Shown: positions 20,968 through 44,353 of the stretch, one piece after another
How positions within the stretch are numbered: position 1 is the first letter of the stretch
How the letters are laid out: every line of letters begins with the position of its first letter
Origin: Calditrichaceae bacterium
GTDB lineage: Bacteria > Calditrichota > Calditrichia > Calditrichales > JBFXGD01
DNA length: 64,000 nt
Direction of reading: 5' to 3'
Assembly (NCBI GenBank): GCA_050173015.1
Contig: JBFXLE010000001.1
Span: 1 to 64,000, forward strand
The notes under the pieces: generated by a model
What the model saw: the letters and a program-made list of their open reading frames with translations, nothing else
The model's database searches: none
What the model was told of the DNA's origin: nothing
Translations under genes and position numbers: made by a program

Positions 20968-21092
20968 CAAATCATTGCACCCGACTCCCAAACACGTCCG
21001 CGTTCGGCGTCGGAGTTCGTGTCATTGTCAAAGATATTAAGGTAATGTAAATTATAGTAGTTGTTTGGGGCGGGTGAACTCTCCCGTTATGT
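20962..21092 (+). mobile_element. Integron attC site 1 (131 bp)
   Basis: R'' ACATAAC is exactly complementary to R' GTTATGT; inner TGCACCCG/CGGGTGAA pairing. Confidence 0.85.
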
Positions 21093-21123
21093 TTCTTACA
21101 AAAAGTACTAAATAGAGATAATC

Positions 21124-23082: not shown

Positions 23083-23167
23083 AATCAGCATTAAACCGAC
23101 GCTAAACGCGTCGGTGTTTCATTAACTTATTAGAACTAAAATGGGCAGCTTATGCTCAGTGTTATAC
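23077..23167 (+). mobile_element. Integron attC site 2 (91 bp)
   Basis: R'' ACATAAA (AAC changed to AAA); L'' AGCATTAA pairs with L' TTATGCT leaving one extra base; R' GTTATAC; GAAACATAA complements the cassette start TTATGTTTC. Confidence 0.75.
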
Positions 23168-23174
23168 CTATAAA

Positions 23175-23777: not shown

Positions 23778-23847
23778 CAATGCAATTTACTCGGCCTTCA
23801 TGCCGGGCGGAGAATTAGGTTCTGGAGTAATTTAACAAGAGTTCGGT
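23772..23847 (+). mobile_element. Degenerate or truncated attC site 3
   Basis: GACTAAC R'' overlaps the stop codon and is followed by attC-like AATGCAATTTACTCGG; the right half is poor. Confidence 0.45.
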
Positions 23848-23992
23848 ATATTATCACAGCCCTTAAACGCCTTAGCCCTGACATAAACCAAATATTCAGC
23901 AATTGAAATTTTTCATATAATAATTACCCAATTATAAATATTGTTTCTTAAATTACATTTCGAATTGTTATCATAGTTTTAAGGAATCATAA

Positions 23993-28102: not shown

Positions 28103-31100
28103 ATGGTCAATGAATCCAAATTAGAAGAATTGTGCATCCAATGGTTTCAGGAAACCGGATGGAATTATTATCACGGTTTTGATATTTCCGTTGACGGCGG
28201 CACCCCCCTGCGGCCGGATTATCATCAGGCGGTTTTATTCAATCCGTTAGTTGAAGCGCTGCAAATCATAAATCCGCATATCCCAAAATCCACGCTTGAA
28301 GAAGTGGCGCTTTCCTTAACCAAAAGTTCGCATCCCATATTAACGCAAAACAACCGTCAATTTCATAAATGGATTCTGGAAGGCTACCCGGTTGACTACC
28401 GGCAAAATGAAGAGACACGTCATGATTATGTACAGTTAATCGATTTTAACAACGTTCATAAGAATCATTTTTTAGTGGTTAACCAATTTACGATTCTGGG
28501 CACAAAGCAGGCGCGCAGACCCGATATCGTTGTTTTTATCAATGGCTTGCCCATTGCCGTTATCGAGTTGAAAAATCCGGGTGATGAAAATGCCGGTATC
28601 TGGGAAGCATACGAACAATTGCAAACCTACAAAGATGAAATCTCCGATTTATTTATCTTCAATGAATCGTTGGTGATATCCGATGGCATCAACGCGCGCA
28701 TCGGTTCATTAACGGCAAACAAGGAATGGTTCCTTCCCTGGCGCACCATCAAAAATGAAAACGACAAACCGCTTCTGGAATATGAACTGGAAAAGGTGGT
28801 AAAAGGATTTTTTAATCCCGAATTGCTTTTGGATTACATCCGCTATTTCATTCTGTTTGAAGATAATGGCGGCATCATCAAAAAGATTGCCGGGTATCAC
28901 CAGTTTCACGCGGTGCGCGAAGCGGTGCGGGTGACGCTAATCGCGTCCAGAAAAATTGAAGAAAAACGCGCTAAAGACCACTCTCTTACCTATGGACAGG
29001 AAGTTGTTCCCGGCAGCCGCAAAGCTGGCGTGGTGTGGCATACGCAGGGTTCCGGTAAAAGTATTTCCATGGTTTGTTATGTGGGCAAACTGTTGCAGCA
29101 GCCGGAAATGAATAATCCCACCATCGTTGTGGTTACGGACCGCAACGATCTTGATGGGCAATTATTTCAGACCTTCAGCAGCGCGAAAGAACTTTTGAAA
29201 CAAATCCCGCGACAGGCCGAGAGCCGCGATGATCTGCGCGAAATGTTAGCCGAGCGGCAATCCGGCGGCATCATTTTCACCACCGTGCAAAAATTTATGA
29301 TGCTGAATCATGAAAAGAAACATCCGGTATTAAATGACCGTCATAATATCGTCGTGATCAGTGATGAGGCCCATCGCAGTCAATATGGTTTTATGGCCAA
29401 ACTGGATCGCAAAACCGGGCAGTATAAATACGGCTTTGCCAAACATATGCGCGATGCTCTGCCCCGCGCCTCGTTTATCGGATTTACCGGAACACCGGTT
29501 TCCAAAGCTGATCACGATACCCGCGCGGTATTCGGTGATTATATCAGCATTTATGATATTCAGGACGCGGTGGATGATGGCGCTACGGTACCCATTTATT
29601 ATGAAAGCCGCTTAGCCAAACTGGATATCAATAAACAGGAAATCGAAGAACTGAATCGTGAAGTGGATGAAGTTCTGGAAGACGAAGAAGATATGGTTTT
29701 ACGCGAGCAGTCAAAAAGCAAATGGGCGGCGCTCGAAAAACTGGTCGGTTCGGAACCACGTTTAAATGAAGTGGCCAAAGATATAATCAACCATTTTGAA
29801 GCCCGATTAGAAGTTATAAACGGTAAAGCCATGATCGTCTGTATGAGCCGGGAAATCTGCGTGAACATGTTCAACGCCATTACGGAAATTAGTCCGGGTT
29901 GGAAAGGAACATTATTTAAAGATAAACCGGGAAGTAACGGTTATTATGATCCGCAGGATGGTGTTATTCGTGTGGTTATGACCGGCAGCGCCTCGGACAG
30001 GGCGGCTTTGCAGCAGCATGTGTACAGCAAAGCAAAAAAGAAAATCATCGAAAAACGCTTTAAAGATCCGGATGATTCTTTGAAACTGGTGATTGTGCGG
30101 GATATGTGGCTGACCGGTTTTGACGTCCCGCCCTGCCATACCATGTATGTGGACAAACCGATGAAAGGCCACAATCTGATGCAGGCCATCGCCCGGGTAA
30201 ACCGGGTGTTCAAAGATAAACCCGGCGGTTTGGTGGTGGATTATATCGGTATCGCCAATGATCTTAAACAAGCGTTAAAAGTATATGTGGATTCGGAAGG
30301 CAAAGGCGCGCCTACCCTGGATACCGAAGAAGCGTATGATATTCTGATGGAGAAGATGGAAATCTGCCGGGCCATGTTCAGCGGCTTTGATTACCACGCG
30401 TTTGAAACAGACGCGCTCAATTTACTGGTTCCTGCCGCCAACCATATTCTCAAAATCGAAGATGGTAAAAAACGATTTTTAGATGCCATGTCCGCTTTAA
30501 CCAAAGCCTTTGCTTTATGTGGCACATTGGATAAAGCCATTGTAATGCGAAAAGAGATCGCCTTTTTTACGGCGGTCAAATCCGCTATTACAAAATATAC
30601 GGATGTTGATAAAAAAAGAACCGAAGAACAAAAATACAGCGCCTTAAAACAAATTCTGGACAACGCGGTTGTCGCGGAGGGTGTCGCGGATATTTTTCAG
30701 CTTGCCGGTCTGGAAAAACCGGATATAGGTTTGCTTTCAGATGAATTCTTAGAAGATGTTCGTAACATGCCGTCAAAAAATCTGGCGGTTGAATTGCTGC
30801 AAAAATTATTAAAAGACGCTATTAAGAGTCGCACGCGTCATAATGTGGTCCGGGAAAAGAAATACAGTGAAATGCTGTTGGATACATTGAGACGCTATCA
30901 CAACCGCGCCATTGAAACCGCGCAGGTGATTGAAGAACTCATCAACATGGCCAAAGATTTTCAGGAAGCGATAAAACGAGATGAAAACCTTGGACTAAAT
31001 CCTGACGAAGTGGCTTTTTATCACGCTTTAGCAAACAATGAAAGCGCCGTTCGTGAATTGGGTGACGCCACGCTAAAAAAGATTGCTGTTGAATTAACTG

Positions 31101-31279
31101 TCAAGCTGCGCAAAAATACAAAGGTTGACTGGCAAGTCCGGGAAAGCGTTCGGGCAAAACTTAGAAACCTGGTGAGACGATTATTGCGTAAATACAAATA
31201 TCCACCGGATAAACAGCGGGAAGCCATCGATCTGGTGTTGGAGCAGGCGGAGAGTCTGGCCAGTGAATGGAGCGCGTAA
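28103..31279 (+). CDS. hsdR: Type I RM restriction endonuclease subunit
   Basis: RPD..(F)INGLP..VIELK nuclease motif, WHTQGSGKS, DEAHRSQY, FTGTP, MWLTGFD, QAIARVNR. Confidence 0.96.
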   Translation: MVNESKLEELCIQWFQETGWNYYHGFDISVDGGTPLRPDYHQAVLFNPLVEALQIINPHIPKSTLEEVALSLTKSSHPILTQNNRQFHKWILEGYPVDYRQNEETRHDYVQLIDFNNVHKNHFLVVNQFTILGTKQARRPDIVVFINGLPIAVIELKNPGDENAGIWEAYEQLQTYKDEISDLFIFNESLVISDGINARIGSLTANKEWFLPWRTIKNENDKPLLEYELEKVVKGFFNPELLLDYIRYFILFEDNGGIIKKIAGYHQFHAVREAVRVTLIASRKIEEKRAKDHSLTYGQEVVPGSRKAGVVWHTQGSGKSISMVCYVGKLLQQPEMNNPTIVVVTDRNDLDGQLFQTFSSAKELLKQIPRQAESRDDLREMLAERQSGGIIFTTVQKFMMLNHEKKHPVLNDRHNIVVISDEAHRSQYGFMAKLDRKTGQYKYGFAKHMRDALPRASFIGFTGTPVSKADHDTRAVFGDYISIYDIQDAVDDGATVPIYYESRLAKLDINKQEIEELNREVDEVLEDEEDMVLREQSKSKWAALEKLVGSEPRLNEVAKDIINHFEARLEVINGKAMIVCMSREICVNMFNAITEISPGWKGTLFKDKPGSNGYYDPQDGVIRVVMTGSASDRAALQQHVYSKAKKKIIEKRFKDPDDSLKLVIVRDMWLTGFDVPPCHTMYVDKPMKGHNLMQAIARVNRVFKDKPGGLVVDYIGIANDLKQALKVYVDSEGKGAPTLDTEEAYDILMEKMEICRAMFSGFDYHAFETDALNLLVPAANHILKIEDGKKRFLDAMSALTKAFALCGTLDKAIVMRKEIAFFTAVKSAITKYTDVDKKRTEEQKYSALKQILDNAVVAEGVADIFQLAGLEKPDIGLLSDEFLEDVRNMPSKNLAVELLQKLLKDAIKSRTRHNVVREKKYSEMLLDTLRRYHNRAIETAQVIEELINMAKDFQEAIKRDENLGLNPDEVAFYHALANNESAVRELGDATLKKIAVELTVKLRKNTKVDWQVRESVRAKLRNLVRRLLRKYKYPPDKQREAIDLVLEQAESLASEWSA

Positions 31280-31618: not shown

Positions 31619-33301
31619 TTACCCCTGTTCTTTGGATGGAATGAGATCGGTCAACTGATGCGGGCCAAAGGGCAGACGTTCATCCAGCGTATCCTGACAG
31701 ATATCCTCCAGCTGATGAATTACCCTCTCCAGATCTCCGCTGCTTACAGAAAGCTGTATGTTCTGATCTTTTAGACTCTCCAGCCGCTCGGGTGACTGGC
31801 TCTTTAAGCGGTCATAGGTATCTTCTATTTCATCGGTGACAATCTGAAAAGTCAGATTAACGTTATCGTATATTATATGACGCAAATCTTTCAGATCCTG
31901 TCTGTTCATCAGATAACGGGATATAATGTCACCAAAGGCATTAATCAATCCGATCACAATGGTCTGGTCATATCCTTCAAAAAATCGCCGGTAAGCGATA
32001 ATCTGAGCGTAATTGAGAATTAACTTGCGATCCCTGGTACGAATCGTTGTATAGATTAACTGATATAACAGCCGGATGTACCACCTTAACGATTCATCAT
32101 CCATGTCTTTATATGGCAGAAAACGGTCTTTGTTCGATGGTTCACGGATCAATCCGATCATCTCGTCAATCAAAGTATCACCGGCTTCAACCAGGAATGT
32201 ATAGATGGTAAGATTTGGCCGTTGTACGACTCTGTTTAACGCCGCTTCATTGCGCAGCTGCCAGGTGTCAGTATGATTTTTCATGTTCTCGATCAAAAAA
32301 AGCAACCTTCTCTTTAAATCATAGCGGGGAGTAGGCCTCCAATCCAGTTCTTTAAATGTGGCATCGGAATTTACTTCCAGTTTTTTGTCAATATATTTTG
32401 CCATCCACAACCTTTCAAAAGGTTCATGACCGGTAAGTCGGCCGATAAGTTGCCGAACGGCCATTCCGGGTACCGCGAGAAGTTTTGGCATCGAAAGAGC
32501 TTTAACACTCTGCCCGAAATAATATTGAGTTGACGCCTTAAAAAGATCAAGGTGCGATGTGGTATGACCGGGACTGGCATTAAAGGTACAGATTCTCGGT
32601 AATTCATCACTTAATTTAAACAGACGCATAAAAATTTTAATCAAATCATTTATATGAATATAAGTGACGGCTGACTCTCCATGGCCTCCGAGAATACGCG
32701 CGTTCCATTTTTTTGATAGCCAGGTGCTCAGAAACACATAAAGAGGCGGATATTCGCACCAGTCGCTGTAAACCGCGGCCATCCTGACGATTGTCGAAGG
32801 GAACCATCCCGCGTGATCATGGATCATCTTCTCACCCATTCTTTTGCTCCACGCGTAAGGGAAGCGGGCTGAAGGTGGGGTCGTTTCCGTCACCGCGGTA
32901 CCCGGTGCCGGGAATTCACAGGCGGCGAGAGAACTGGCGAAAATGAACCGTCGAACACCCAATAATTTCGCCAGCTTTAAAATATGACGTGTTCCGTTTA
33001 CGTTTGTCCGTTCGTACTCAGGATTCTCCATATTGCTGAAATCATAGTATCCCGCCAGATGCAGAACAAAATCAGCGCCGCCATGGGACTTGATGCAGCG
33101 TACCACATCGCGAAGGCCATCCCAGTCGGCGATATCCACCTGGGACCAGCGCAAATTTTCATAAGCCGGTATTCCGGCCTCTTTTTGAGAACGTCTCGCC
33201 AAACAGAACAGTCTGTATTTTCCGGCCGCGGCTTCAAGAAAATGCCGTCCGACAAATCCCGACGCGCCGGTTACTACGATACCAGGTAATTTTTTATCCA
33301 T
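31619..33301 (-). CDS. NAD-dependent epimerase/dehydratase (extended SDR) with helical C-terminal extension
   Basis: VTGASGFVG, HLAGYY, YAWSK (YxxxK); about 200 additional residues. Confidence 0.85.
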   Translation of the reverse strand: MDKKLPGIVVTGASGFVGRHFLEAAAGKYRLFCLARRSQKEAGIPAYENLRWSQVDIADWDGLRDVVRCIKSHGGADFVLHLAGYYDFSNMENPEYERTNVNGTRHILKLAKLLGVRRFIFASSLAACEFPAPGTAVTETTPPSARFPYAWSKRMGEKMIHDHAGWFPSTIVRMAAVYSDWCEYPPLYVFLSTWLSKKWNARILGGHGESAVTYIHINDLIKIFMRLFKLSDELPRICTFNASPGHTTSHLDLFKASTQYYFGQSVKALSMPKLLAVPGMAVRQLIGRLTGHEPFERLWMAKYIDKKLEVNSDATFKELDWRPTPRYDLKRRLLFLIENMKNHTDTWQLRNEAALNRVVQRPNLTIYTFLVEAGDTLIDEMIGLIREPSNKDRFLPYKDMDDESLRWYIRLLYQLIYTTIRTRDRKLILNYAQIIAYRRFFEGYDQTIVIGLINAFGDIISRYLMNRQDLKDLRHIIYDNVNLTFQIVTDEIEDTYDRLKSQSPERLESLKDQNIQLSVSSGDLERVIHQLEDICQDTLDERLPFGPHQLTDLIPSKEQG

Positions 33302-33339: not shown

Positions 33340-33780
33340 TCACGAATTAGTCAGGTTCGGTGATATGGTCGCGTCATTGCTGCGATTGTGATCATTGATC
33401 CAGCCGATATAAGTCACATAGATTAACAGGCACATAATACCGTCACCGATGCCTGATAGCAGAACCATCCATATTGACTCAATTACAAAAAAGTAAATCA
33501 ATAGAAAAACGGTTGCCGCCGCTTTGACGCCGATGGAGAAAATGACCAGCGCCCTGTTTTTTTGGAGATTTCCGGCAGCCATGGCATAGGCAAAGGCCAT
33601 TACGATGTGAAAAACACCGCCCTGGGCCGGGAAAAAATGCTCACCGCAGGACTTAAATCCGAACAATTTCATGATGACCGGTGGCTGCATAATCAATCCC
33701 AGACCAACCATAAATGAATGCAAAGCAATCGCCCATAACACTAACGATAAACGTGATTCCGCGTTTTTAAAGAGTTTCAT
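33340..33780 (-). CDS. Hypothetical four-TM membrane protein
   Basis: Four hydrophobic helices; co-oriented in the rnf operon. Confidence 0.75.
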   Translation of the reverse strand: MKLFKNAESRLSLVLWAIALHSFMVGLGLIMQPPVIMKLFGFKSCGEHFFPAQGGVFHIVMAFAYAMAAGNLQKNRALVIFSIGVKAAATVFLLIYFFVIESIWMVLLSGIGDGIMCLLIYVTYIGWINDHNRSNDATISPNLTNS

Positions 33781-33810: not shown

Positions 33811-35892
33811 TTAAACAACCGCCTCTTCCTTTACCGATTCTTCCTCATCCTGATCATAACAATAGATACCGCAATTTAAACATCGTGTAGCCTCGTAGCG
33901 GGCATCCTCTTCATCAATGGTTCCCTCCACTTCCTTAAACGTTCCCAGTCGGTCTTCCAGCGTGACCACAGGTTCATACACACGCGGTTTTGTTTCAACA
34001 CCGGTAATCGATTTCTGCAATGACTCGGGGATAAAGTCTTTCTGCCTGTCCTGGATTGGCGGAATTTTACCATCTGTCATGTAAAAATGAATGGAACGGG
34101 CGGCATATCGTCCCGCCGCGATCGCTTCCACCACAAGACCGGGTCCGGTAAAGCAATCCCCACCCGTGAACACATAGGGTATATCTGTCTGTAATGTCGA
34201 TTCTTCCGCCTCAATCGTATCCCAATGCGTGAAGTTTATCATTTTCAGCGCGGGGTCATTCTTCAGCAACTCTATATCAGGTTTTTGCCCGACGGCTTCG
34301 ATGATCATATCACAGGCAACAAGCTCTTCTGAGCCATCAATGGGGACCGGACGGCGTCTTCCACCGGGATCGGGTTCGCCGAGTTCCATTTGTGTTATCT
34401 CCAGCGCTTCCACGGAGCCGTTTTGAGTAATAATCCGGTTTGGTGAAGATAAAAATCTGATAGAGATGCCTTCCTCTTCGGCGGCTACGATTTCCGCCGG
34501 ATTTGCCGGCATTTCATTCCGCGAACGCCGGTAAACGATGGTTACATTCTCAGCGCCCAGTCGTTTGCTGCTTCTGGCGGCGTCGATGGCCGTATTGCCT
34601 CCTCCGATGATGATCACCTGTTTGCCTATTGAGAGATTCTCACCATTTTGAAACTTTTCCAAAAATTTAATTCCGCTGATCACACCCTTCGCGTCATGTC
34701 CTTCAATATTCAGCTGATGTTCGCCCCAGGCGCCAACCGCCACAAAAACGGAATCAAATTTTTGATTGCGTATATCTTCCATTTTAATATCGACGCCAAA
34801 TTCAACGCCGGTTTTGACTTCAATACCTAACTTCAAAATACCTTCGATTTCCCAGTCCAGAATTTTTTTCGGCAGCCTGTATTCCGGGATGCCGTAACGA
34901 AGCATACCGCCCAGTTTGTCCATTTTCTCAAAAATGACCACCTGATGTCCCAGTCTGCGCAGATAATAGGCCGCTGAAAGCCCACCCGGTCCGCTACCGA
35001 TCACGGCCACTCTTTTTTGTGTATCCGGCGCGACCGGAATGGTCAGCCGGCGGCCGGAATCCATTTCCCAATCGGCCACAAAGCGTTTTAAATAATTTAT
35101 CGCCACGGGTTCATCTTTTATCTGACGACGGCAGGCCAGGGCGCAGGGCTCCGGACAAACACGTCCGCAGGTCAGCGGAAGTGGGTTATGCTCCTTAATC
35201 GTCAGAAGGGCCTCGGCATATTTACCCTCTTTGATATAATGAATATATTTTGGGATGTCGATCTGCGCGGGACATTTTTGACGGCAGGGCGCCAGACATT
35301 CCGTGTATTGATTCCAGTGCAGGATTTTTGTTTTTTCGGAGATCAATGCGATAATTCCCTTGGGACAGGCCCGGACACATTCACCGCATCCCACACAACG
35401 GTCAGGATTAAAATGCGGCAATCCGTCATCACCCATGGTAATCGCGTTAAATTTGCATGCTTTTACACATGTGCCCAGGCCAATACATCCGTGGTCGCAA
35501 TACCGGGGACCGCGGTAATAAAGCATGGCGGCCCGACAGTCGTCAAAACCCAGATAATCATATTTTGTAAGAGCCCTGTTTCCGCCCCGGCAATCCGGAT
35601 TAGCGATATGAGGCTCACTTTCCATAACGGACATACCCAGGTAAGCGGCGATTTGATTTGCGACTTCCGTCTGTCCGACCACACAGGCATTGACCTGCGC
35701 TTCTCCTTTTACAATCGCCTCGGCGCAGGCGCTGCAGCCGGCGAAGCCGCAACCGCCGCAATTGGCGCCCGGTAAAATATTTAAAACCCCCTGGATCCGC
35801 GGATCATCCTTTACATAAAAGATGTGACTGGCGACTCCAAGACAGAGAGCGGCAATCAGGCCGATCCCGGATAATACCCATACTGATAACAT
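33811..35892 (-). CDS. rnfB: RnfB fused to a GltD/NfnB-like FAD/NAD(P) oxidoreductase
   Basis: N-terminal anchor, LPGANCGGCG, ferredoxin motifs, then CP..IDIP, GRVCP, GSGPGG, GGGNTAIDAAR, YRR, RCLNC. Confidence 0.88.
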   Translation of the reverse strand: MLSVWVLSGIGLIAALCLGVASHIFYVKDDPRIQGVLNILPGANCGGCGFAGCSACAEAIVKGEAQVNACVVGQTEVANQIAAYLGMSVMESEPHIANPDCRGGNRALTKYDYLGFDDCRAAMLYYRGPRYCDHGCIGLGTCVKACKFNAITMGDDGLPHFNPDRCVGCGECVRACPKGIIALISEKTKILHWNQYTECLAPCRQKCPAQIDIPKYIHYIKEGKYAEALLTIKEHNPLPLTCGRVCPEPCALACRRQIKDEPVAINYLKRFVADWEMDSGRRLTIPVAPDTQKRVAVIGSGPGGLSAAYYLRRLGHQVVIFEKMDKLGGMLRYGIPEYRLPKKILDWEIEGILKLGIEVKTGVEFGVDIKMEDIRNQKFDSVFVAVGAWGEHQLNIEGHDAKGVISGIKFLEKFQNGENLSIGKQVIIIGGGNTAIDAARSSKRLGAENVTIVYRRSRNEMPANPAEIVAAEEEGISIRFLSSPNRIITQNGSVEALEITQMELGEPDPGGRRRPVPIDGSEELVACDMIIEAVGQKPDIELLKNDPALKMINFTHWDTIEAEESTLQTDIPYVFTGGDCFTGPGLVVEAIAAGRYAARSIHFYMTDGKIPPIQDRQKDFIPESLQKSITGVETKPRVYEPVVTLEDRLGTFKEVEGTIDEEDARYEATRCLNCGIYCYDQDEEESVKEEAVV

Positions 35893-35921
35893 AATCGTTC
35901 CCGGAAGTGTATTCGTTTAAT

Positions 35922-36497
35922 TTATGTTGCCATCCCGGAGAATCCGAGAAATGCCAACGACATTATACCTGCCGTAACCAGAGCGGCAGCGGTACCCTGC
36001 ATTGCTTTAGGCAGTGGTGAAATCAGAAGCCTTTCACGTAAACCGGCGAATAAAATGAGCGCCAGAGAAAAGCCAACCGAACTGGCCAGTGAGAATATCA
36101 CCATCTGCCAGAATCCAAATTCATGTTTGATATTTAAGAGAGCTATACCCATCACGGCGCAATTTGTTGTAATCAATGGTAAATAGATTCCCATGGCGTT
36201 GTAAATCGCTCTGCTTTGTTTTTTTAGGAATATTTCAACCAGTTGAACCAGAGCGGCAATAACCAGAATAAACACCAGCGTTTGTATGTATTCTAGTTTA
36301 AACGGGTGTAGTATATAATGGTAAATAGTCCAGGTAAAAATTGAAGCTAAAACGGCCACAAATATTACCGCGGCTCCCATACCCAGGGAAGTGGTCAGTT
36401 TTTTTGATACGCCGCAAAACGGGCAGTTTCCCAGATACTGGGCAAGCAGAATATTATTTACAAAAATCGCGCTAATTGCTAATAGTAAAAGATCCAT
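35922..36497 (-). CDS. rnfA: Rnf complex subunit A
   Basis: NNILLAQYLGNCPF, LVQLVE, LPLITTNCAV; ATG at 36497. Confidence 0.93.
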   Translation of the reverse strand: MDLLLLAISAIFVNNILLAQYLGNCPFCGVSKKLTTSLGMGAAVIFVAVLASIFTWTIYHYILHPFKLEYIQTLVFILVIAALVQLVEIFLKKQSRAIYNAMGIYLPLITTNCAVMGIALLNIKHEFGFWQMVIFSLASSVGFSLALILFAGLRERLLISPLPKAMQGTAAALVTAGIMSLAFLGFSGMAT

Positions 36498-36505
36498 TCC
36501 CGCTC

Positions 36506-37132
36506 CTAAGCTTGAATAAAAGTCTCGCCGCGTTTTCTGCTCCAGGCGTTCATCAGGCCAAGAAGTATCCCAAGGCAAATGAAAGCGCCGGGCGCTTTTA
36601 CCATAAATTCAAACGGTTCAAAGGATTTCCAGACCACATTTATCCCGAAAAATGTACCCGCGCCAAATAATTCACGTATTATTCCTACCGTCGTCAGAGA
36701 AATCGTATATCCCAGGCCGATACTAAATCCGTCCGCCAAGGACAGGTAAACAGGGTTTCTGGAGGCAAAGGCTTCGGCCCGGCCCAATATGATGCAATTC
36801 ACAACGATGAGAGGGATAAATATCCCGAGTTGCTGCGACAGGGAAAAGAAATACGCTTTCATGATCATTTCGACAATGACCACCATTGTCGCGATGATAA
36901 CAATGTAACCTGCTATTCGAACTTTACCAGGTATAAAATGTCTCAGCGATGATATGGCCATATTGCTGAAAATCAGTACGAAGGTGGCCGCCAGTCCCAT
37001 GCCTAACCCGTTCTCCGCGCTTGCGGTCACGGCAAGAGCCGGACACAGGCCCAGTACGAGTCTGAATGGCGGCAAATCCTTCCAGAATCCATGAACAAGG
37101 GTTTTTAGAAATTTTTGTTGATTAGCGGTCAT
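36506..37132 (-). CDS. rnfE: Rnf complex subunit E
   Basis: LGLCPALAVT, IPLIVVNCIILGRAEAFA, PGAF. Confidence 0.94.
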   Translation of the reverse strand: MTANQQKFLKTLVHGFWKDLPPFRLVLGLCPALAVTASAENGLGMGLAATFVLIFSNMAISSLRHFIPGKVRIAGYIVIIATMVVIVEMIMKAYFFSLSQQLGIFIPLIVVNCIILGRAEAFASRNPVYLSLADGFSIGLGYTISLTTVGIIRELFGAGTFFGINVVWKSFEPFEFMVKAPGAFICLGILLGLMNAWSRKRGETFIQA

Positions 37133-37740
37133 TTTATTTCTCCGGATCTTGCCTGTTGTTGGGAAATCTTATCCATAATTTCCGATTTCTTCTCTTTGTA
37201 AAGATTTATGATTGAATTTGAACCGTTGATCATCGCCGATGAAGAATAAGTAGCGCCCGAAATACCGTCAACCTGGCCACCGGCCGATTTTAAATTAATT
37301 GAATTGACGGCGGATAAGTTGTTCCACTGTTTTTTGAAAGAGGATTTTTCGATCTGAGAACCAACTCCGGGTGTCTCAGAATGGTTGATAATTTCTACAC
37401 CAAGCAGTTTATCTGAATCAAGATCAATACCCAGCATCAGTACAATATTTCCGCCATATCCGCCTTTGCCCATGTCCTCGATCGCCAGCTTCGTTGTTTT
37501 ACCGTTGGCGCCGCTGAAAAATATCGGATATTGATGATCTTCCCAGTTGAATATTATCTTATTTTTCAGCAACTGATCCGCCGGTTTTTGCATAAGGGCG
37601 GAAAGCGCGGGTCCACGCACATACAGATCGTTTTGCATTTCTATCTTGGGGGCAAGATTGTTCCTGACCGCCTCGAGCGTTCCGGCTGACACGCCACATA
37701 TCAGCGTCAAAATCACAGCTAATTTTAACACTTCACGCAT
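37129..37740 (-). CDS. rnfG: Rnf complex subunit G (FMN-binding)
   Basis: N-terminal anchor, GYGG, ETPGVG, DGISGATYSS flavinylation motif. Confidence 0.93.
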   Translation of the reverse strand: MREVLKLAVILTLICGVSAGTLEAVRNNLAPKIEMQNDLYVRGPALSALMQKPADQLLKNKIIFNWEDHQYPIFFSGANGKTTKLAIEDMGKGGYGGNIVLMLGIDLDSDKLLGVEIINHSETPGVGSQIEKSSFKKQWNNLSAVNSINLKSAGGQVDGISGATYSSSAMINGSNSIINLYKEKKSEIMDKISQQQARSGEIK

Positions 37741-38695
37741 GCTTTTCTACCTCCAGGCCAATCACTGCCGGTGTGATTTTATCAAGCAGCGGATTGCAGA
37801 GATTCATCAGCAGAATCGTAAATGCAACCCCGTCATGAAAAATTGAAAACGCGCGGATCAACACCAATAGCAATCCGCCTAATAAGCCGTATAACAACAT
37901 TGGTATTGGATTGACCGGAGACGTTGTGGATTCGGTTGCCAGAAAAAAAGCGGCAAAGATGGCGCTTCCCGATAAAATCTGAAAAAGGGGAGCCGCGAAT
38001 TGTGCCGGATTCAATCCGTGTAACAGCGCGCTATTTATCAAAACCCCCGCAAGAAATGAAACGGGAATGTGCCAGGTGATTTGTCTGGTCATTATCAGAA
38101 AAATTCCACCGGCAAGCAGCCACACGACCATGGCATTGCCCGTCCCCGCTACCTGATTCCCAAGGAAAAGATCACGGTATGAAAATAACGATTCAGCTCC
38201 CGTTCCCAGGGTTTTTACCAGCCGCATAGGTTCGATCATTTTTACGCCCCAGTCGGTTCCGATAAGTGAAGAAGTATAATCAAAGCGGGCGGGCCAGGAG
38301 ACCTGCATCATGGCAAAAGCCAGTAAAACGGGATGGACCGGGTAGCCGCCAAGTCCGCCGAACAACCGCTTGCCTCCAATCATGATGAAACAACCCGTCA
38401 AAATCATCCACCAGGTCGCGTTATGCGGCATCAAAAGCGCCAACAGAACCGCGAAAGTGACCGGATTCCAATTGGCGCTTTCATCCTTGGAAGGAAAAAA
38501 TTTGCTGAAAATCGCGTCTATGGTAACCGAAAACGCGATACACAACGCGAATACTGATAGTACGCTATCCCCTGATTTGAGCAGACTCGCGATTACTGCC
38601 GGAAGCATCGCCAGCAGCCATAAAATCTGCATTGTGAAAATCGAGCTCCCATCTCTCCAATGGGGATTTGCTGCTACATTCAACTTGTTGGACAT
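37733..38695 (-). CDS. rnfD: Rnf complex subunit D
   Basis: NPH, K.LFGGLG..PVHP, DLFLG, AFFLATE...SP, FTILLMN; start is 38695 or 38701. Confidence 0.88.
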   Translation of the reverse strand: MSNKLNVAANPHWRDGSSIFTMQILWLLAMLPAVIASLLKSGDSVLSVFALCIAFSVTIDAIFSKFFPSKDESANWNPVTFAVLLALLMPHNATWWMILTGCFIMIGGKRLFGGLGGYPVHPVLLAFAMMQVSWPARFDYTSSLIGTDWGVKMIEPMRLVKTLGTGAESLFSYRDLFLGNQVAGTGNAMVVWLLAGGIFLIMTRQITWHIPVSFLAGVLINSALLHGLNPAQFAAPLFQILSGSAIFAAFFLATESTTSPVNPIPMLLYGLLGGLLLVLIRAFSIFHDGVAFTILLMNLCNPLLDKITPAVIGLEVEKHA

Positions 38696-39986
38696 ATTCA
38701 TCCTGTTTTCCAATATATTTTTTAGTCATTTTTATAAGCTGTACCAGCGGCCGATGGGCGGGGCAGACATATCCGCACAAACCACACTCGTGACAAAGCT
38801 GCGGATTGAAATCCATCGCGTCGATGAACATATTATGTTCCGCGTACCGCCCGATTAAATGTACCTGCAAACGGGAAGGACAAACCCGTGTGCATCGGCC
38901 GCAGTTGATACAGGTTAGGTTTACTTCAAGGGGGATCTCCGATTCCTTCATCAGATACATTCCGTGGCTGGTTTTGGTTAACGGAGTCAGGTCGGTATAC
39001 ATCGCGATTCCCTTCATCGGCCCGCCTACAAGGATTCTCGAATAGTTTTGCGCGTTCAGATGCAGGTACTTCATTACATGCCGAAGAGTTGTTCCAATCG
39101 GAACCTTCAGAATAAACGGCCGGTCAATTTCAGTGCCGCTGATAGTCAAATATTTATCTACAAATGGAATTTCATTCTCCACCGCGTCAACCAGGTTGAG
39201 TAGATTTTCGCAGGATATCACCGCCACTCCGCGCGCCCGGTAAGGTTCAGTGTTTGCTATATCCGCGCCGCTCAGACGCGGAACAACCACTCGTTCTATT
39301 CTGTCCTTGTATTCCGACGATAAACCGGAAATATCAGCATATTTTCCGAAGGCGTCCCTGGCGAAAGATGTGAGATGATCCGGAACGGATAGAATGATTC
39401 GCCCGCGGGGAGCAAAATTCGCCAATTGCTGAAAACCGCGAATCAGTTTTTCACGTTCCATTTTTAGCAATGATTCACAGACAAAATGAGTCGGTTCTTC
39501 ATTTACTCCCTTAACAATGATGGTGTGCACTTCCGGAAAAGTATCTTCTTCTTCATGATGAAACTGGCCGGGAGTGGTCCAGGGAGAAATAATGCCGAGC
39601 GCTTTTAGCCTTTTTACGGTTGATAAAGTGCCGTAGTCCTGCTGAAATTGTTCTGAAATTTCTTCAGGTGTCAAAGCGGGTACATTGTTTCTCTGAATAA
39701 GAACCGTGGGAACATTAAAGATTCGGGCGGTCCAGACCGGCAGAATATCCCTTACAATGCCACTGATGGAACTATGAACGCAATGCCCCAGTTTTGACCT
39801 GCCGATCACCTGATATCTGCGGACCTGATCTCCGATACTGACAAGCGGTTTGTAAAATATCTGTCCGGGGTATTCCAGGGGGATAATGACATAAACAGGG
39901 TCCGCTAATTCCATTATTTCCGTCTGCCATTCCTCGCGGACCGGAACAGAACCAAGTGGTTTAATCAATTGCTTTATTCTTTTCAT
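38565..39986 (-). CDS. rnfC: RnfC-like subunit with degenerate NADH/FMN-binding motif
   Basis: N-terminal barrel (VHSSISG), SLBB (VPIGT), GGPMKG, CINCGRCTRVCP and CHECGLCGYVCP. Confidence 0.82.
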   Translation of the reverse strand: MKRIKQLIKPLGSVPVREEWQTEIMELADPVYVIIPLEYPGQIFYKPLVSIGDQVRRYQVIGRSKLGHCVHSSISGIVRDILPVWTARIFNVPTVLIQRNNVPALTPEEISEQFQQDYGTLSTVKRLKALGIISPWTTPGQFHHEEEDTFPEVHTIIVKGVNEEPTHFVCESLLKMEREKLIRGFQQLANFAPRGRIILSVPDHLTSFARDAFGKYADISGLSSEYKDRIERVVVPRLSGADIANTEPYRARGVAVISCENLLNLVDAVENEIPFVDKYLTISGTEIDRPFILKVPIGTTLRHVMKYLHLNAQNYSRILVGGPMKGIAMYTDLTPLTKTSHGMYLMKESEIPLEVNLTCINCGRCTRVCPSRLQVHLIGRYAEHNMFIDAMDFNPQLCHECGLCGYVCPAHRPLVQLIKMTKKYIGKQDEYVQQVECSSKSPLERWELDFHNADFMAAGDASGSNRESAQIRG

Positions 39987-40035
39987 TAGATTAGTACTTT
40001 CTTTGTCTGATCAACCGGCGTCCTTTATTGCCGAA

Positions 40036-40662
40036 TTATTTCAAATGACAGGCCTGACAACGAACACTGCCGTCCGGTTCAAAAAAATAATTTTCATTTT
40101 CCAGCCGGTGACAATCATTACACTGCTGATGATAAACTCCTTCTGAACTTTGCGGATTATGGCATCCGGTACATTCGTGTCCTTCGATTTCACAAAATTC
40201 ATCATGGTTTAAGAGATCAGCGTTGTACTCAGGATCATCGTGGCATTTTAAACAGTCAACACCCTTGGTTTCTTCATCCTGATTCTTAGCATGACAGGCC
40301 TTACAATTCTGTGGATTCCTGGTCTCATCGATCTTATGGCAGGTGACGCATTGATGTGATTCCACCTGCTTTAAATCAGCGTGCGTAAAATATTCCGCTT
40401 CCATTTCATCATGACATTCATTACACTCTACACGTTCATCCGCGCTGAGAATTTCATGATGGCATCCGGCGCAATTTTCCACAGTTTGCTGATGTTGACT
40501 ATGTTCAAAAAGGACATCGCCCCCTTTATTATGCATAAAGAAACGATTCCCGGATGATGATTCGGCTGTTGATAAATACCCCATAAAGCCGACTATGAAA
40601 GCAAGGACCGTCAAAAGTATCAATACTAATAATTTTTTGTTTTTTAAGAAATTACCATTCAT
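40036..40662 (-). CDS. Membrane-anchored octaheme cytochrome c (c3/DhcA-like)
   Basis: Eight CxxCH motifs, GGDVLFEH c3-type motif, N-terminal hydrophobic segment. Confidence 0.9.
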   Translation of the reverse strand: MNGNFLKNKKLLVLILLTVLAFIVGFMGYLSTAESSSGNRFFMHNKGGDVLFEHSQHQQTVENCAGCHHEILSADERVECNECHDEMEAEYFTHADLKQVESHQCVTCHKIDETRNPQNCKACHAKNQDEETKGVDCLKCHDDPEYNADLLNHDEFCEIEGHECTGCHNPQSSEGVYHQQCNDCHRLENENYFFEPDGSVRCQACHLK

Positions 40663-41128
40663 CGCTGTCTTCTATCATAATTAATTTTTCATGTTCCGGT
40701 GAAAGCGCGTGCCAATGGCAGCTAATCTTTGTACAAATAAAGAAAGGCACTTTCAGAGTGGGGCTGCCGATCAGAAAACTTGCCGCGCTCGATTTGCATA
40801 TCGCGCATTTTCGGGTCGTGACCACTAAGGATTTATGACAATGCGGGCATCTAAAATCCTTCGCTTCTTCGGATTCGGTTAGTTTGATAGTTGTGAAATG
40901 TTCAAAGGAGTTCAAATATGGGCTTAGCGCTAATTGGCCTGTTTCACCGGTCAATCTGACCAGCTCGATATACAGCTTATTACCGATGGTAAGCTCTTTC
41001 AGGCAATGTGGACAGAATGAGTTTAAATAGGTTCCGCTTTTAATTTTGGTGCGTTCATTGTACTTGTGTGATTTCCAAAAAATATTCTGCCAGCTATCCT
41101 GTAAATCATCCTGCTTTTCCGACATCAT
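40652..41128 (-). CDS. Cys-rich hypothetical protein, first gene of the rnf operon
   Basis: CPHC x2, CAIC, C..ISCHWH; overlaps the cytochrome start. Confidence 0.75.
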   Translation of the reverse strand: MMSEKQDDLQDSWQNIFWKSHKYNERTKIKSGTYLNSFCPHCLKELTIGNKLYIELVRLTGETGQLALSPYLNSFEHFTTIKLTESEEAKDFRCPHCHKSLVVTTRKCAICKSSAASFLIGSPTLKVPFFICTKISCHWHALSPEHEKLIMIEDSDEW

Positions 41129-41177
41129 GAAAGTGCCTTTCAAATTATTTTATGCCGACATTTTTTCCATAGAAAAG

Positions 41178-41302
41178 ACAAATACAATGCCAGAACCCTA
41201 TTCCGTGTAACTGCATAAAAAACAATGTTTATAAGAATGGGTTTGACCGCTGCCTATTGCAATAATGCAATTTGGAGTGTTTTAAGAGGTGCGTTTGTGC
41301 AA
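41178..41302 (-). promoter_or_regulatory. Sigma54 promoter (TGGCATTGTATTTGT) with tandem TTGCA-N4-TGCAA enhancer sites
   Basis: -24/-12 box at 41178-41192; palindromes at 41257-41270 and 41289-41302. Confidence 0.7.
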
Positions 41303-41444: not shown

Positions 41445-42392
41445 CTATGAAGAAAGCCCGCTGAATCGCCGCATGTAGAACTGATGGCCCTCATAGGGTA
41501 TATTTATGATTTGTTTTCGCGCGATTAGTTTATCCACGACTCTCCAATCGGAATGGGTTTCCTGAAGAAAACGGATCAGCGCGTCAATCCGCATTGGTTG
41601 AACCGCGAGCAGATTGAGCAGATCTTCCTCAACACGTCCGGTCTTGTCAAAGCCGCCGTCATTATAGTCCAGTAAATATTCTACATTTTTTATCCGCCGG
41701 TTAAAATTTTGAAAGACCCGGTTTACGGTTTCTTCCGTTGGTGGTACTATCCGCCCGGAGGCGGGCGAGCCGATAGGGGCAGAAATATAGGAGACGGCCG
41801 GATTTAATCTGGCGATAAATTCGGCGGTCTGTTCAACGCAGGCGGTACCGGTATTGATGCCCTCCACCAGCATGGTTTCTGTGTTCAGAGACCCGTTGAA
41901 TTCGTCCGCGAACCGCAGTTGTCCCTGCATGATCCGACGCAGGTTTAGTTGATGATGCGGATTGTTCAGCTTTTGCCAGACACCTTCATCTACGGAATCG
42001 ATTTTGATCGATACCCAGTCAGCTTTACACAGATCCGCCCGTGTCTCATCATTATATAGTAAAGAACCATTGGTAATGACGGCCAGTTTGATGTTAAAAA
42101 ATCTGACCAGGTCGAAAATTCTACCCAGATTTTGATCAAGTGTGGGCTCACCAGCGGGTATGATTGTCAGGAAATCAATTTTATCATTATTTTCTTTGGT
42201 TTTTATGATAAGATCCTGAAGATCGGCAAAGATATCCTGTGGATTGAGATATACGGATCTTTGGCATTTTTTGCTTTTAATTTTCCCGACCCGGCAGTGG
42301 CTGCAGGAATATGTACATATTTTGGAGGGCAGGTTATTGATTCCCAGACATTTTCCCAGCCTTCCGGACGTGATCGGCCCAAAGGCAATCAT
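41445..42392 (-). CDS. Radical SAM protein
   Basis: FGP..S.RLG..LGIN, CTYSCSHC, GEPTL, TNGSLL; ATG at 42392 with GGGAGG RBS. Confidence 0.88.
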   Translation of the reverse strand: MIAFGPITSGRLGKCLGINNLPSKICTYSCSHCRVGKIKSKKCQRSVYLNPQDIFADLQDLIIKTKENNDKIDFLTIIPAGEPTLDQNLGRIFDLVRFFNIKLAVITNGSLLYNDETRADLCKADWVSIKIDSVDEGVWQKLNNPHHQLNLRRIMQGQLRFADEFNGSLNTETMLVEGINTGTACVEQTAEFIARLNPAVSYISAPIGSPASGRIVPPTEETVNRVFQNFNRRIKNVEYLLDYNDGGFDKTGRVEEDLLNLLAVQPMRIDALIRFLQETHSDWRVVDKLIARKQIINIPYEGHQFYMRRFSGLSS

Positions 42393-42474
42393 AGATCGAT
42401 ATGCCTCCCGGATGTTGATTAGAATTGAAAGACGACCCGTTTGGTCAAGATTTATCACAATATATCTGATGATA

Positions 42475-42625: not shown

Positions 42626-44353
42626 TTATGAATCAGATTCTTTATCCAGCAGACCGTACTTTTTCATTTTTCTCCACAGAGTACTTTTATCAATGTTCAG
42701 GATTTTTGCCGTTAGCGCGCGGTTGTTGTCATTTTGCAGCAGCGTTTGCCGGATCATCGATTTTTCAGCGTCTTCCAACAGATTTTTATTATCCGGATAT
42801 TTGTCGGGAGATTCAGAAGCGGCGGGATTTTCATCCATCAACCAGTCGGGCAGATGCTGCATTTGAATGGACTTCTCATGGCACATCACAAAAGCGTGCT
42901 CCAGCACATTTTCAAGTTCTCTTATGTTCCCGGGCCAGTAATAATCCATAAGGGTATGATACGCTTTGGAGGAGATATCATTGATCTCCTTATCAAATTT
43001 TTCACTGAATTTTCGGAGAAAATGATCCACCAGCAGCGGCAAATCATCCATTCTTTCCCTCAGAGGGGGCATATGAATATTGATGACATTCAGCCGGTAA
43101 TACAGATCTTCCCTGAACCGACCCTTTTTGACTTCCTCATACAGGCTTTTATTGGTTGCCGCCAGGATGCGTACATCCATTTGAATTGGTTTGGATCCAC
43201 CAACGCGTTCAAACTGTTTTGTCTCCAGGACGCGCAGCAATTTTACCTGAACAGCGGGGGAAATGTCCCCGATTTCATCAAGAAAAAGCGTTCCTTTGTT
43301 GGCGAGCTCAAAATGACCGGTTCTTGTTCGCGTGGCGCCGGTAAATGATCCTTTCTCATGCCCGAACAACTCGCTCTCAAGAAGTGATTCGACAAAAGCG
43401 CTGCAGTTTAATGCCATAAAAGGTTTTGATCGGCGAGCGCAGTTCAGGTGCAGCGCCCTGGCCACCAGCTCTTTCCCGGTACCGCTTTCCCCGGTTATCA
43501 GGACGGTCGTATCGCTCTGGGCGACATTTTTTAGCAGGGCGTAAATTTTTTGCATCGACTTACTGCGGCCAATCAGATTTTCAAAACTGTAGCGTTCCTT
43601 TAGGTGATTCGCCAAGTTTTTCAGTTCGGAGATATCACTAAAGGTTTCCACTCCGCCGATACATTCACCATCCGCGTTAAATAGCGGAGCCGAATTGACA
43701 CGGACCGGTATTTTATGTCCGTCTTTATGTAAGATACAGAGTTCACGGTCAGGAGAGACTTCCTTGCCCTTCATGGTCGCTTCCATATGACAATTATTGT
43801 GGCATAGATCTGAACAAAACAGTTCCCAGCATTTTTTCCCAATGGCTTCGGTTCTGGCATAACCGGTTATTTTTTCCGCCGCGCGATTAAAGGAGGTAAT
43901 TGCCCAGTCATTGTTAATCGTGAAGGTGCCCTCTGATCTGCTGTTAAATATGGCTTCCAGTTTATTTTTCTCATTGATGATTTCTCTGGTTTTTTCCAGG
44001 ACAGACTCAGATAATCTTTGCATTTCCCTGGTATCGCGGAAGACAAAAACCACGCTTACAATCTCTTTTGTAGATCGTTTGATGGGAGTGATGGAAGAAA
44101 GAACGTTGACTTGCTGCCCATCGGCTCGGGAAAGATTTAATGAAAGATTTGAAAAGGATTCGCCTGATTTTAACGCCTGGCGGATAGCGTCGCTGTCTTT
44201 TTTCGAATTACTGAACAGCATATTATAATCACGCAGAATGACCTGTTCTTCAGTAAACCCGGTTATTCTGCTGGCCGCTTCGTTAAACGCGATGATCTTG
44301 TTGTGCCGGTCGATGACAGCTGTACCGTCAGGACAAATTAGATTTATATCCAC
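42626..44353 (-). CDS. Sigma54-dependent enhancer-binding regulator (PAS-PAS-AAA+-Fis HTH)
   Basis: GESGTGKE, ESELFGHEKGSFTGA, LFLDEIG, FREDLYYRLNV, WPGNIREL. Confidence 0.95.
   Translation of the reverse strand: MDINLICPDGTAVIDRHNKIIAFNEAASRITGFTEEQVILRDYNMLFSNSKKDSDAIRQALKSGESFSNLSLNLSRADGQQVNVLSSITPIKRSTKEIVSVVFVFRDTREMQRLSESVLEKTREIINEKNKLEAIFNSRSEGTFTINNDWAITSFNRAAEKITGYARTEAIGKKCWELFCSDLCHNNCHMEATMKGKEVSPDRELCILHKDGHKIPVRVNSAPLFNADGECIGGVETFSDISELKNLANHLKERYSFENLIGRSKSMQKIYALLKNVAQSDTTVLITGESGTGKELVARALHLNCARRSKPFMALNCSAFVESLLESELFGHEKGSFTGATRTRTGHFELANKGTLFLDEIGDISPAVQVKLLRVLETKQFERVGGSKPIQMDVRILAATNKSLYEEVKKGRFREDLYYRLNVINIHMPPLRERMDDLPLLVDHFLRKFSEKFDKEINDISSKAYHTLMDYYWPGNIRELENVLEHAFVMCHEKSIQMQHLPDWLMDENPAASESPDKYPDNKNLLEDAEKSMIRQTLLQNDNNRALTAKILNIDKSTLWRKMKKYGLLDKESDS

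Follow-up and report, generated by a model that had tools for sequence, protein, structure and literature searches.

Rnf and Nqr complexes are the central redox-driven ion pumps of anaerobes, and the site at which they couple electron transfer to ion movement is debated. In the canonical path electrons leave the flavin mononucleotide (FMN) of RnfG for the FMN covalently bound to RnfD and continue by way of riboflavin to RnfC or to quinone. RnfD/NqrB and RnfG/NqrC each bind FMN at a conserved threonine, and the core Rnf/Nqr cofactors are termed strictly conserved (2025 review PMC12174285; the literature is cited here from the available part of each source, and that part of the review mentions neither Desulfovibrio nor a fusion). 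In Nqr an anchored NADH flavoprotein, NqrF, takes the position of RnfB, and the RnfC homologue NqrA is without cofactors (PMC12174285). Here we compare these systems with an rnf operon of a Calditrichaceae bacterium (assembly GCA_050173015.1), which lies at 33811-41143 on the minus strand of the window, that is, of the whole stretch analysed (positions 1 to 64,000 of contig JBFXLE010000001.1, 64,000 nucleotides).

The closest described systems are Rnf complexes with a large RnfB. In Desulfobacula toluolica Tol2 this subunit has ∼ 700 residues and carries NAD+-binding sites besides its Fe-S domains (PMC5109826), RnfC is without the NADH-ubiquinone-oxidoreductase and SLBB domains (PMC5109826, PMC11887813), and a different mode of action was proposed, with experimental verification pending (PMC5109826). 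D. multivorans has an A. woodii-type Rnf1 as well as a Tol2-type Rnf2; Rnf2 subunits were found in its membrane proteome and the rnf2 cluster encodes a cytochrome (PMC5109826). Rnf2 belongs to the core genome of the Desulfobacteraceae and is described as 'abundantly and constitutively formed' (PMC11887813). Our literature search found descriptions of Rnf2 only in these two papers. It returned no paper that combined RnfB, GltD and a cytochrome, or a fused RnfB and glutamate synthase, and the available text of the Caldithrix abyssi genome paper mentions only a canonical rnfBCDGEA.

All three published Rnf2 traits are present in the window: a large NAD(P)-binding RnfB, an RnfC without Complex1_51K and SLBB domains, and a cytochrome encoded in the cluster. 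We read the operon, with about even confidence, as coding for a complete and functional large-RnfB Rnf that would work as a reversible, ion-translocating NAD(P)H:cytochrome c oxidoreductase.

A third Rnf/Nqr-type complex in the host genome

The eight open reading frames (ORFs) of the operon are closely packed or overlapping and all are intact (Table 1). They run from a Cys-rich protein through an octahaem cytochrome c and rnfC-D-G-E-A to an rnfB-GltD/NfnB-type fusion; the window's subunits are written RnfC2, RnfD2 and so on. Pfam and NCBIfam name every rnf subunit. RnfA2 and RnfE2 score above the NCBIfam cut-offs, and RnfC2 (TIGR01945, 183 bits; cut-off 245.95), RnfD2 and RnfG2 (95.5 bits; cut-off 102) below them. 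The closest model for RnfG2 is the exception model NF045876 (RnfG_DVU2794), with 178 bits and a cut-off of 205.

The host assembly has 4.34 Mb in 54 contigs, and a search with PF03116 found three RnfD/NqrB genes in it. One of the other two belongs to a canonical rnfBCDGEA operon (contig C24) with a 269-residue RnfB and intact RnfC and RnfD motifs, the other to nqrABCDE (contig C29), which is broken off at the contig end. ApbE is also encoded in the genome. The window operon is a third, separate Rnf/Nqr-type complex and not a mutated form of the cell's sole Rnf. Since the host also encodes a canonical Rnf and an Nqr, a distinct job for it is plausible.

Table 1. Genes of the rnf operon and of its surroundings in the window.
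Feature	Position	Strand	Length (residues)	Assignment or remark
RnfB2-GltD/NfnB-type fusion	33811-35892	-	693	Pfam, NCBIfam
RnfA2	35922-36578	-		ORF listed from TTG; TIGR01943 248.5 bits, above cut-off
RnfE2	36506-37132	-	208	TIGR01948 238.4 bits, above cut-off
RnfG2	37129-37740	-	203	N-terminal anchor and FMN_bind; PF04205 63.3 bits
RnfD2	37733-38713	-	326 as called	TIGR01946 188.7 bits, cut-off 207.05
RnfC2	38565-39986	-	473	RnfC N-terminal barrel and two [4Fe-4S] motifs
Octahaem cytochrome c	40036-40662	-	208	8 CxxCH; PF02085 Cytochrom_CIII 42.9 bits
Cys-rich cytoplasmic protein ('ZnR')	40652-41143	-	158-163	First operon gene
SDR/epimerase-family protein	31619-33301	-	560	Downstream neighbour; C-terminal ∼ 230 residues without assignment
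Membrane protein	33340-33780	-	146	Downstream neighbour; no family
Radical SAM protein	41445-42458		337	Between sigma-54 activator and operon
PAS-PAS sigma-54 activator	42626-44353	-	575	Pfam Sigma54_activat 241.9 bits, PAS, HTH_8

Conserved replacements at the flavin sites of RnfC2 and RnfD2

RnfC2 carries LGIISPWTTPGQFHH and KGVNEEP. In phmmer alignments with solved RnfC chains lgiispwttpgqfhh stands opposite agivgmggatfpthvk and kgvneep opposite naaecep of 7zc6_C, with equivalents in 9eri_C and 8ahx_C; the same stretches stand opposite GIVGMGGAGFPTH and NGAECEP in the host's own canonical RnfC. Pfam (E ≤ 0.01) returned neither Complex1_51K (PF01512) nor SLBB for RnfC2, and the canonical RnfC of the host, serving as positive control, gave 171.8 bits for PF01512. 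All three marks of the canonical FMN/NADH site (the Gly-rich loop, GAECEP and PF01512) are absent from RnfC2.

RnfD2 is a stand-alone protein with PF03116 as its sole domain. Its GVKMIEPM lies opposite vttatpl of 9eri_D and gvttatpl of 7zc6_D (phmmer). In a MAFFT alignment this Glu shares its column with the final Thr of GITGATPL in the host's own RnfD and of GFSGATPL in its NqrB. We take the last Thr of this (S/T)GAT-PL/ApbE motif to be the FMN acceptor in RnfD, and RnfD2 is without it.

To place these motifs among relatives, a scan of one genome per species gave 80 loci, of which 57 (L001 and L007-L062) form the window-type set, with an RnfC 36-87% identical to that of the window; in L063-L083 and L085 this identity is at most 28%. 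The acceptor column of RnfD holds Glu in 53 of 55 relatives and Asp in 2 of 55, and the motif Dxx[ST]GA[TS] occurs nowhere in the 48 RnfD2 sequences scanned. A protein search with RnfC2 gave 355 matches at E ≤ 1e-10, and the best 120 of them (38-100% identity) were examined for motifs. None of these 120 has the Gly-rich loop; the replacement motifs are G-V/I-x-(S/P/A)-P-W-T-x-(P/S)-G and (N/Q)-E-(E/P/T). All eight Cys of the two [4Fe-4S] clusters of RnfC2 are kept (50/50 relatives).

The original prediction had placed LGIISPWTTPG and GVNEEP at the canonical FMN/NADH-site positions of RnfC, and MIEPM of RnfD at the usual ATPL position of the covalent FMN. The comparisons with the solved chains and with the host's own paralogues bear out both placements. 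The prediction had also called these sites degenerate, and here it does not hold: what is found instead are conserved motifs, G-V/I-x-S-P-W-T-x-P-G in RnfC and M-I/V-E-P in RnfD. The RnfC and RnfD losses are lineage-wide conserved replacements and no decay. One may speculate that the Glu at the RnfD flavin site mimics the charge of the lost phosphoester.

The two genes overlap by 149 nucleotides (38565-38713) in different frames, so that one stretch of DNA codes both for the last ∼ 40 residues of RnfC2 and for the N-terminus of RnfD2. L001, L007, L053 and L062 have such overlaps too, of 119-137 nucleotides. Many other members of the cassette have a shorter RnfC of 426-440 residues, and in L055 RnfC2 is split into 324 and 145 residues.

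The retained redox chain and its added partners

The flavinylation motif of RnfG2, DGISGAT, is retained in the translation, as predicted, and SGA[T/S] is present in 53/53 relatives. The [2Fe-2S] ligands of RnfE2 (C30 and C113) are found in 48/48 relatives and in the canonical paralogue. Those of RnfA2 (C52 and C140) are found in 49/49 relatives and align with the Cys of the canonical paralogue. Because the TIGR01943 match begins at residue 28 and homologues have 190-193 residues, RnfA2 probably starts at Met28 near 36497 and would then have ∼ 191 residues.

RnfB2 consists of a transmembrane helix, the RnfB [4Fe-4S] domain, a 2×[4Fe-4S] ferredoxin domain, Fer4_20 (two clusters), the flavin adenine dinucleotide (FAD) and NAD(P)H Rossmann folds and a C-terminal CxxCxxxC, in that order. 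Residues 1-190 match RnfB (NF041836, 197.6 bits; PF04060 FeS domain) and residues 194-682 are GltD-type (NF009410, 536 bits, cut-off 516; Fer4_20; Pyr_redox_2). The solved chains nearest to the module are 9bov_A, 9n5u_A, 8oh5_C, 4ylf_B, 5jca_L and glutamate synthase small chains. Every locus whose contig reaches rnfB has the fusion (46/46; the other 11 of the 57 contigs stop before or inside the gene), and the cluster Cys are all kept in 45/45 relatives. The second Rossmann strand ends in VYRRSR, and v-Y-R-R-(S/T) occurs in all five best solved GltD/NfnB-type chains. The strand-end consensus of the 45 relatives is FRFSR. Of an earlier claim that RnfB bears a GltD/NfnB-like module with an NADP-type YRR, the module and the YRR stand, but the NADP-type signature is not general.

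The cytochrome has a single N-terminal hydrophobic segment (residues 5-23) that would serve as signal or anchor, so the protein is probably either anchored or secreted. The prediction of an anchored eight-haem cytochrome preceding rnfC agrees with the CxxCH count, with this segment and with the position of the gene directly upstream. Its best solved relatives are the 16-haem 1z1n_X and the 9-haem 1duw_A. A cytochrome adjoins rnfC on the upstream side in 56/57 loci; the remaining contig begins inside rnfC. The called cytochrome ORFs contain eight CxxCH in 46 loci, six in 8 and four in 1 (the lower counts come from shorter ORF calls), and for one locus the script counted an adjoining 13-haem ORF instead of the cytochrome.

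The Cys-rich gene overlaps the start of the cytochrome gene by 11 nucleotides and probably begins with the ATG at 41128. It lies directly upstream of the cytochrome in 52/57 loci. Alignments of relatives show seven invariant Cys, a C-terminal S-x-E-W and no transmembrane segment; Pfam and NCBIfam returned only sub-threshold zinc-ribbon matches. The predicted model (mean predicted local distance difference test score 71) is all-beta. A Foldseek comparison with the PDB gave no match at E ≤ 0.001; its weak rows included zinc-binding domains of the Rpb9 type and from the C-terminus of LGP2. Look-alikes in the Atlas are clusters of 'hypothetical protein', and weaker structural rows include N-terminal HymA/NuoE-like parts. 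Prediction of a complex between RnfC2 and the Cys-rich protein scored 0.00 in both runs, which is uninformative on binding either way.

Distribution and kinship with Rnf2

The order of the cassette is fixed in the 57 loci, which represent at least seven phylum-level groups. That the same features recur in 57 related loci takes the architecture beyond chance. Carriers outside the Desulfobacterota belong to Calditrichota, Zixibacteria, Krumholzibacteriota, Fibrobacteraceae (Fibrobacterota), Latescibacterota and Neomarinimicrobiota and include a Bacteroidales metagenome-assembled genome (MAG). The cassette is also carried by many Desulfocapsaceae, among them cultured Desulfopila (sp. IMCC35006 and IMCC35008), Desulfofustis glycolicus DSM 9705, Desulfosediminicola flagellatus and Desulforhopalus, and by Geopsychrobacteraceae. 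The closest named relative is a Calditrichaceae MAG (L001) with an 87% identical RnfC. Within the Calditrichota 8/86 genomes and 6/53 high-quality genomes have the cassette. A second whole cassette on another contig of Desulfofustis sp. PB-SRB1 (L084; 39% identity in the best segment) is broken, with RnfC, RnfD, RnfE and RnfB each in 2-4 pieces; the copy may have decayed, or frameshift errors in a long-read assembly may account for the breaks.

A quick maximum-likelihood tree of RnfD was built from 44 rows, comprising 23 window-type sequences hand-picked from 56, all low-identity loci with a 300-400-residue RnfD, the host's own RnfD, and NqrB as outgroup. All large-RnfB rows fall into one clade with a Shimodaira-Hasegawa-like approximate likelihood ratio test support of 98, and the window-type subclade has a support of 100 and a stem of 1.22. 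Copies from Desulfocapsaceae and Geopsychrobacteraceae are nested inside those of the Fibrobacterota-Chlorobiota-Bacteroidota (FCB) group. This nesting, together with the patchy distribution within the Calditrichota, suggests horizontal spread of the cassette.

A Desulfobacteraceae MAG (L069) and Dethiosulfatarculus sandiegensis (L067) served as stand-ins for Tol2, whose own sequences are outside the comparison. Their RnfB proteins are 41% (L069) and 48% (L067) identical to RnfB2 over the full length. RnfE2 is 61-67% identical to its counterparts in the two loci, against at most 54.6% in 12 canonical loci. In both operons RnfC is likewise without PF01512 and RnfD without GAT-PL; the RnfD flavin site reads Tyr in L069 and SMTLL in L067. 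Among 18 small-RnfB loci with a readable RnfC motif the Gly-rich loop is kept in 18/18 and ECEP in 17/18 (ECEL in L064). Not all of the wider large-RnfB group has the cytochrome, since L067 showed no cytochrome ORF ahead of rnfC. D. sandiegensis has two large-RnfB genes, 48% (L067) and 43% (L090) identical to that of the window.

The window thus shares with Rnf2 the ∼ 700-residue RnfB, the reduced RnfC, the cluster cytochrome c and the coexistence with a small-RnfB Rnf1. It differs in that its subclade has SPWTxPG in RnfC and Glu/Asp in RnfD as its own marks, adds the Cys-rich gene before the cytochrome (undetected in L067, L069 and L072) and occurs mostly outside the Desulfobacterota. On these grounds we file the operon as a putative member of the published large-RnfB kind, in a distinct sublineage with its own RnfC and RnfD signatures. 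The acidic RnfD residue, the Cys-rich gene and the spread outside the Desulfobacterota are apparently unreported; details of RnfC and RnfD may be contained in the supplements of PMC11887813 and PMC12174285.

Comparison with other Rnf- and Nqr-type complexes

Canonical Rnf (7ZC6, 9ERI, 8AHX) and the window complex have in common the six homologous subunits and the order rnfCDGEAB. The [2Fe-2S] Cys of RnfA/E, the FMN motif of RnfG, the Fe-S domains of RnfB and the pair of [4Fe-4S] clusters of RnfC are likewise kept. The window complex is without the RnfC FMN/NADH domain and the RnfD Thr, and has gained the GltD fusion, the cytochrome and the Cys-rich protein.

With Na+-NQR the likeness is one of design: the place of RnfB is taken by an NAD(P)H flavoprotein with a transmembrane anchor, and the homologue of RnfC is stripped of its nucleotide/flavin site. 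The input module is GltD-type in the window, whereas NqrF has an FNR-like module and a [2Fe-2S] cluster. RnfC2 keeps two Fe-S motifs and NqrA none; NqrB, unlike RnfD2, keeps its covalent FMN; and the partner is a cytochrome in the window and ubiquinone in Nqr. The scores of the window proteins for the NqrA, NqrB and NqrC families are far below the cut-offs.

A multihaem cytochrome c is also the first gene of the rnf operon in Methanosarcina acetivorans (MmcA) and Desulfovibrio (DhcA). For M. acetivorans Rnf, conservation of the known cofactor sites in RnfB, D, G and C is stated (10.1101/2022.07.20.500911), and the Rnf of Desulfovibrio alaskensis is treated as a ferredoxin:NADH oxidoreductase (PMC4215793). 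The available text on these systems does not mention a large RnfB. Identity of the window complex with this cytochrome-Rnf type was rejected, since the sites of those systems are canonical or the enzyme is regarded as a ferredoxin:NADH oxidoreductase.

A two-subunit Nqr/Rnf-like complex has been described with a Thr-less RnfD-like subunit and a proposed path from NAD(P)H to the extracytosolic side (Meheust et al. 2021; bioRxiv 10.1101/2024.03.13.584918). It resembles the window complex in this subunit, in a flavinylated RnfG-like protein and in the direction from NAD(P)H to the outside. It differs in that a PF00175 NAD-binding domain is fused to the RnfD-like subunit and that, in the part of the source available, RnfA/E, RnfB, RnfC and a cytochrome are absent; the window has a stand-alone RnfD2 and all six rnf genes.

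Proposed electron path and its alternatives

In the path that we propose, NAD(P)H would reduce the FAD on the GltD module of RnfB2, and electrons would pass over the two [4Fe-4S] clusters of the module and the RnfB clusters to the membrane [2Fe-2S] of RnfA/E. From there they would go on to the covalent FMN that RnfG holds in the periplasm, then to the octahaem cytochrome and into the periplasmic pool of cytochromes; the flow could also run in reverse. Translocation of Na+ or H+ would be coupled at the A/E-G core, perhaps with D included, and the logic would be that of a rewired Nqr with a cytochrome in place of the quinone. Because the RnfD FMN site is gone in every member, the cytochrome would be the obvious acceptor from RnfG. 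The redox span from NAD(P)H to a low-potential c-haem is of the same order as that from ferredoxin to NAD+, so that ion pumping or a gradient-driven reverse reaction would be feasible. Entry of NAD(P)H at the RnfB fusion and exit via RnfA/E and RnfG to the cytochrome had been proposed from the start, and this route fits the retained ligands and the RnfC and RnfD losses. Two further elements of the original prediction fared less well. A simple bypass of the RnfD-RnfC branch is argued against by the eight Cys of RnfC2, and the branch is probably not simply bypassed; nothing in our analysis supports bifurcation.

Several observations weigh against an NAD(P)H:cytochrome c oxidoreductase of the large-RnfB kind. 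Its direction, its ion coupling and its electron partner are all inferred from the genes. A pure path from NAD(P)H to cytochrome leaves the RnfC2 clusters and the SPWT motif unexplained, and these are conserved, as is the Cys-rich protein. The nucleotide signature is mixed, with YRRSR in the window, as in NADP-named relatives, and mostly FRFSR elsewhere. In D. alaskensis the co-transcribed decahaem DhcA was unimportant for fitness in almost all conditions in which Rnf mattered (PMC4215793), so a cluster cytochrome need not sit on the main path. In a published scheme Rnf2 connects the pools of NADH, ferredoxin and NADP (PMC11887813). As to kinship, RnfC2 is 26-28% identical to RnfC of L067 and L069, no closer than to canonical RnfC, and the identities of RnfC, RnfD and RnfG to these loci are in general no higher than to canonical Rnf. 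The large-RnfB clade of the RnfD tree unites three long branches of 1.2-1.6 changes per column, and long-branch attraction is possible.

Some of these observations give room to a ferredoxin:NAD(P)+ oxidoreductase and ion pump, which we consider the leading alternative and yet unlikely. Here the nicotinamide site would have moved to RnfB, ferredoxin or another low-potential carrier would dock at the Fe-S domain of RnfC2, perhaps with the Cys-rich protein, electrons would take the usual loop and the cytochrome would be a side exit. The invariance of the RnfC2 [4Fe-4S] motifs, the pools linked in the published Rnf2 scheme and the dispensability of DhcA in most conditions all speak for it. The loop, however, depends on the FMN covalently bound to RnfD as the link from RnfG-FMN to riboflavin (PMC12174285), and the Thr is Glu or Asp in 55/55 relatives, with no other ApbE motif in any RnfD2 scanned (0/48); moreover, a cytochrome kept in 56/57 loci is unlike an optional accessory. 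The gap at RnfD would be closed in a three-port complex, in which the cytochrome haems replace the RnfD FMN and pass electrons by way of a non-covalent riboflavin of RnfD to the RnfC2 clusters, from which the Cys-rich protein or a cytoplasmic acceptor would receive them. Such a complex would account for the strong conservation of RnfC2 and the Cys-rich protein and for the invariant acidic residue, with a Trp before it, exactly at the old FMN site. The two-subunit complex offers a precedent, as its RnfG-like flavin is proposed to reach a non-covalent site of the RnfD-like subunit (10.1101/2024.03.13.584918). The scheme is nevertheless purely speculative, and the sub-threshold zinc-ribbon-type matches of the Cys-rich protein count against it; we hold it to be improbable.

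A bifurcating or confurcating machine, in which the GltD-type FAD would split the electrons of NADPH between the RnfB chain and a second acceptor, is suggested by the homology of the module to the NfnB-type subunits of bifurcating Nfn (5jca_L, 4ylf_B). The same fold is non-bifurcating in glutamate synthase small chains (2vdc_G and 6s6s_G were also matched), the ORFs and Pfam assignments reveal no NfnA-like second branch in the operon, and there is no specific pointer to a second acceptor, all of which makes this reading very improbable. Hardly any weight is left for a decaying or non-redox Rnf paralogue. The scores of RnfC2, RnfD2 (188.7 against 207.05 bits) and RnfG2 below their NCBIfam cut-offs could be taken to point that way, but the frames are intact and different phyla share the cassette together with its conserved motifs; decay was rejected on these conservation data.

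Genomic setting

Downstream of the operon lie the SDR/epimerase-family and membrane-protein genes (Table 1). They neighbour the cassette in 16/57 and 10/57 loci, respectively, none of them from Desulfocapsaceae or Geopsychrobacteraceae. Two genes upstream is the sigma-54 activator, which has a homologue in the flanks of 12/57 loci and, by its position, is a possible regulator of the operon. A homologue of the intervening radical SAM protein is found near the cassette in only 2/57 loci. A sigma-54-like -24/-12 element, TGGCAT-N5-TTTGT, is present at 41178-41192 (minus strand), ∼ 50-64 nucleotides before the first gene. It is shared by L001 alone, with its 87% identical RnfC (2/52 upstream regions against 6/510 control pieces), and a loose sigma-54 pattern gave 36 matches in the window against 49 expected, that is, no enrichment; the element was not used as evidence. 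The region is flanked by the gene for a 1058-residue type I restriction enzyme R subunit (28103-31279), and at 20001-24000 the G+C content drops to 32-33%, against ∼ 43-50% around it. The restriction gene and the low-G+C stretch hint at an accessory, mobile neighbourhood.

Implications for Rnf-type energy conservation

For the window itself the gain is modest: the published type is extended to the Calditrichota and other FCB-group phyla. The window's additions are a phylum new to the type, the family-wide acidic substitution in RnfD, the SPWT signature of RnfC, the Cys-rich gene and evidence for horizontal spread. A wider proposal, which we put forward only tentatively, is that the cassette marks a distinct, horizontally spread subclade of large-RnfB complexes in FCB-group phyla, Desulfocapsaceae and Geopsychrobacteraceae. 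Combining the Cys-rich protein, the octahaem cytochrome, RnfC2 and RnfD2 with its Glu, this subclade would act as a quinone-independent, ion-pumping NAD(P)H:cytochrome c oxidoreductase, with the Cys-rich protein as an eighth subunit or as a partner of RnfC2.

Because the cofactors of RnfB, RnfA/E and RnfG are kept while the RnfD Thr and the RnfC domain are replaced, the family is a natural case in which to ask which half of the electron loop pumping requires. If the proposal is true, the Rnf/Nqr core can pump without the covalent FMN of RnfD, and the coupling step would be placed in the half that runs from RnfB over the [2Fe-2S] cluster of RnfA/E to RnfG. Anaerobes would gain a direct, energy-conserving wire from cytoplasmic NAD(P)H to periplasmic or extracellular electron transfer. 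Such a complex would tie NAD(P)H to the periplasmic cytochrome pool without quinones, which in sediments would be relevant to sulfur cycling, to metal reduction and to extracellular electron transfer.

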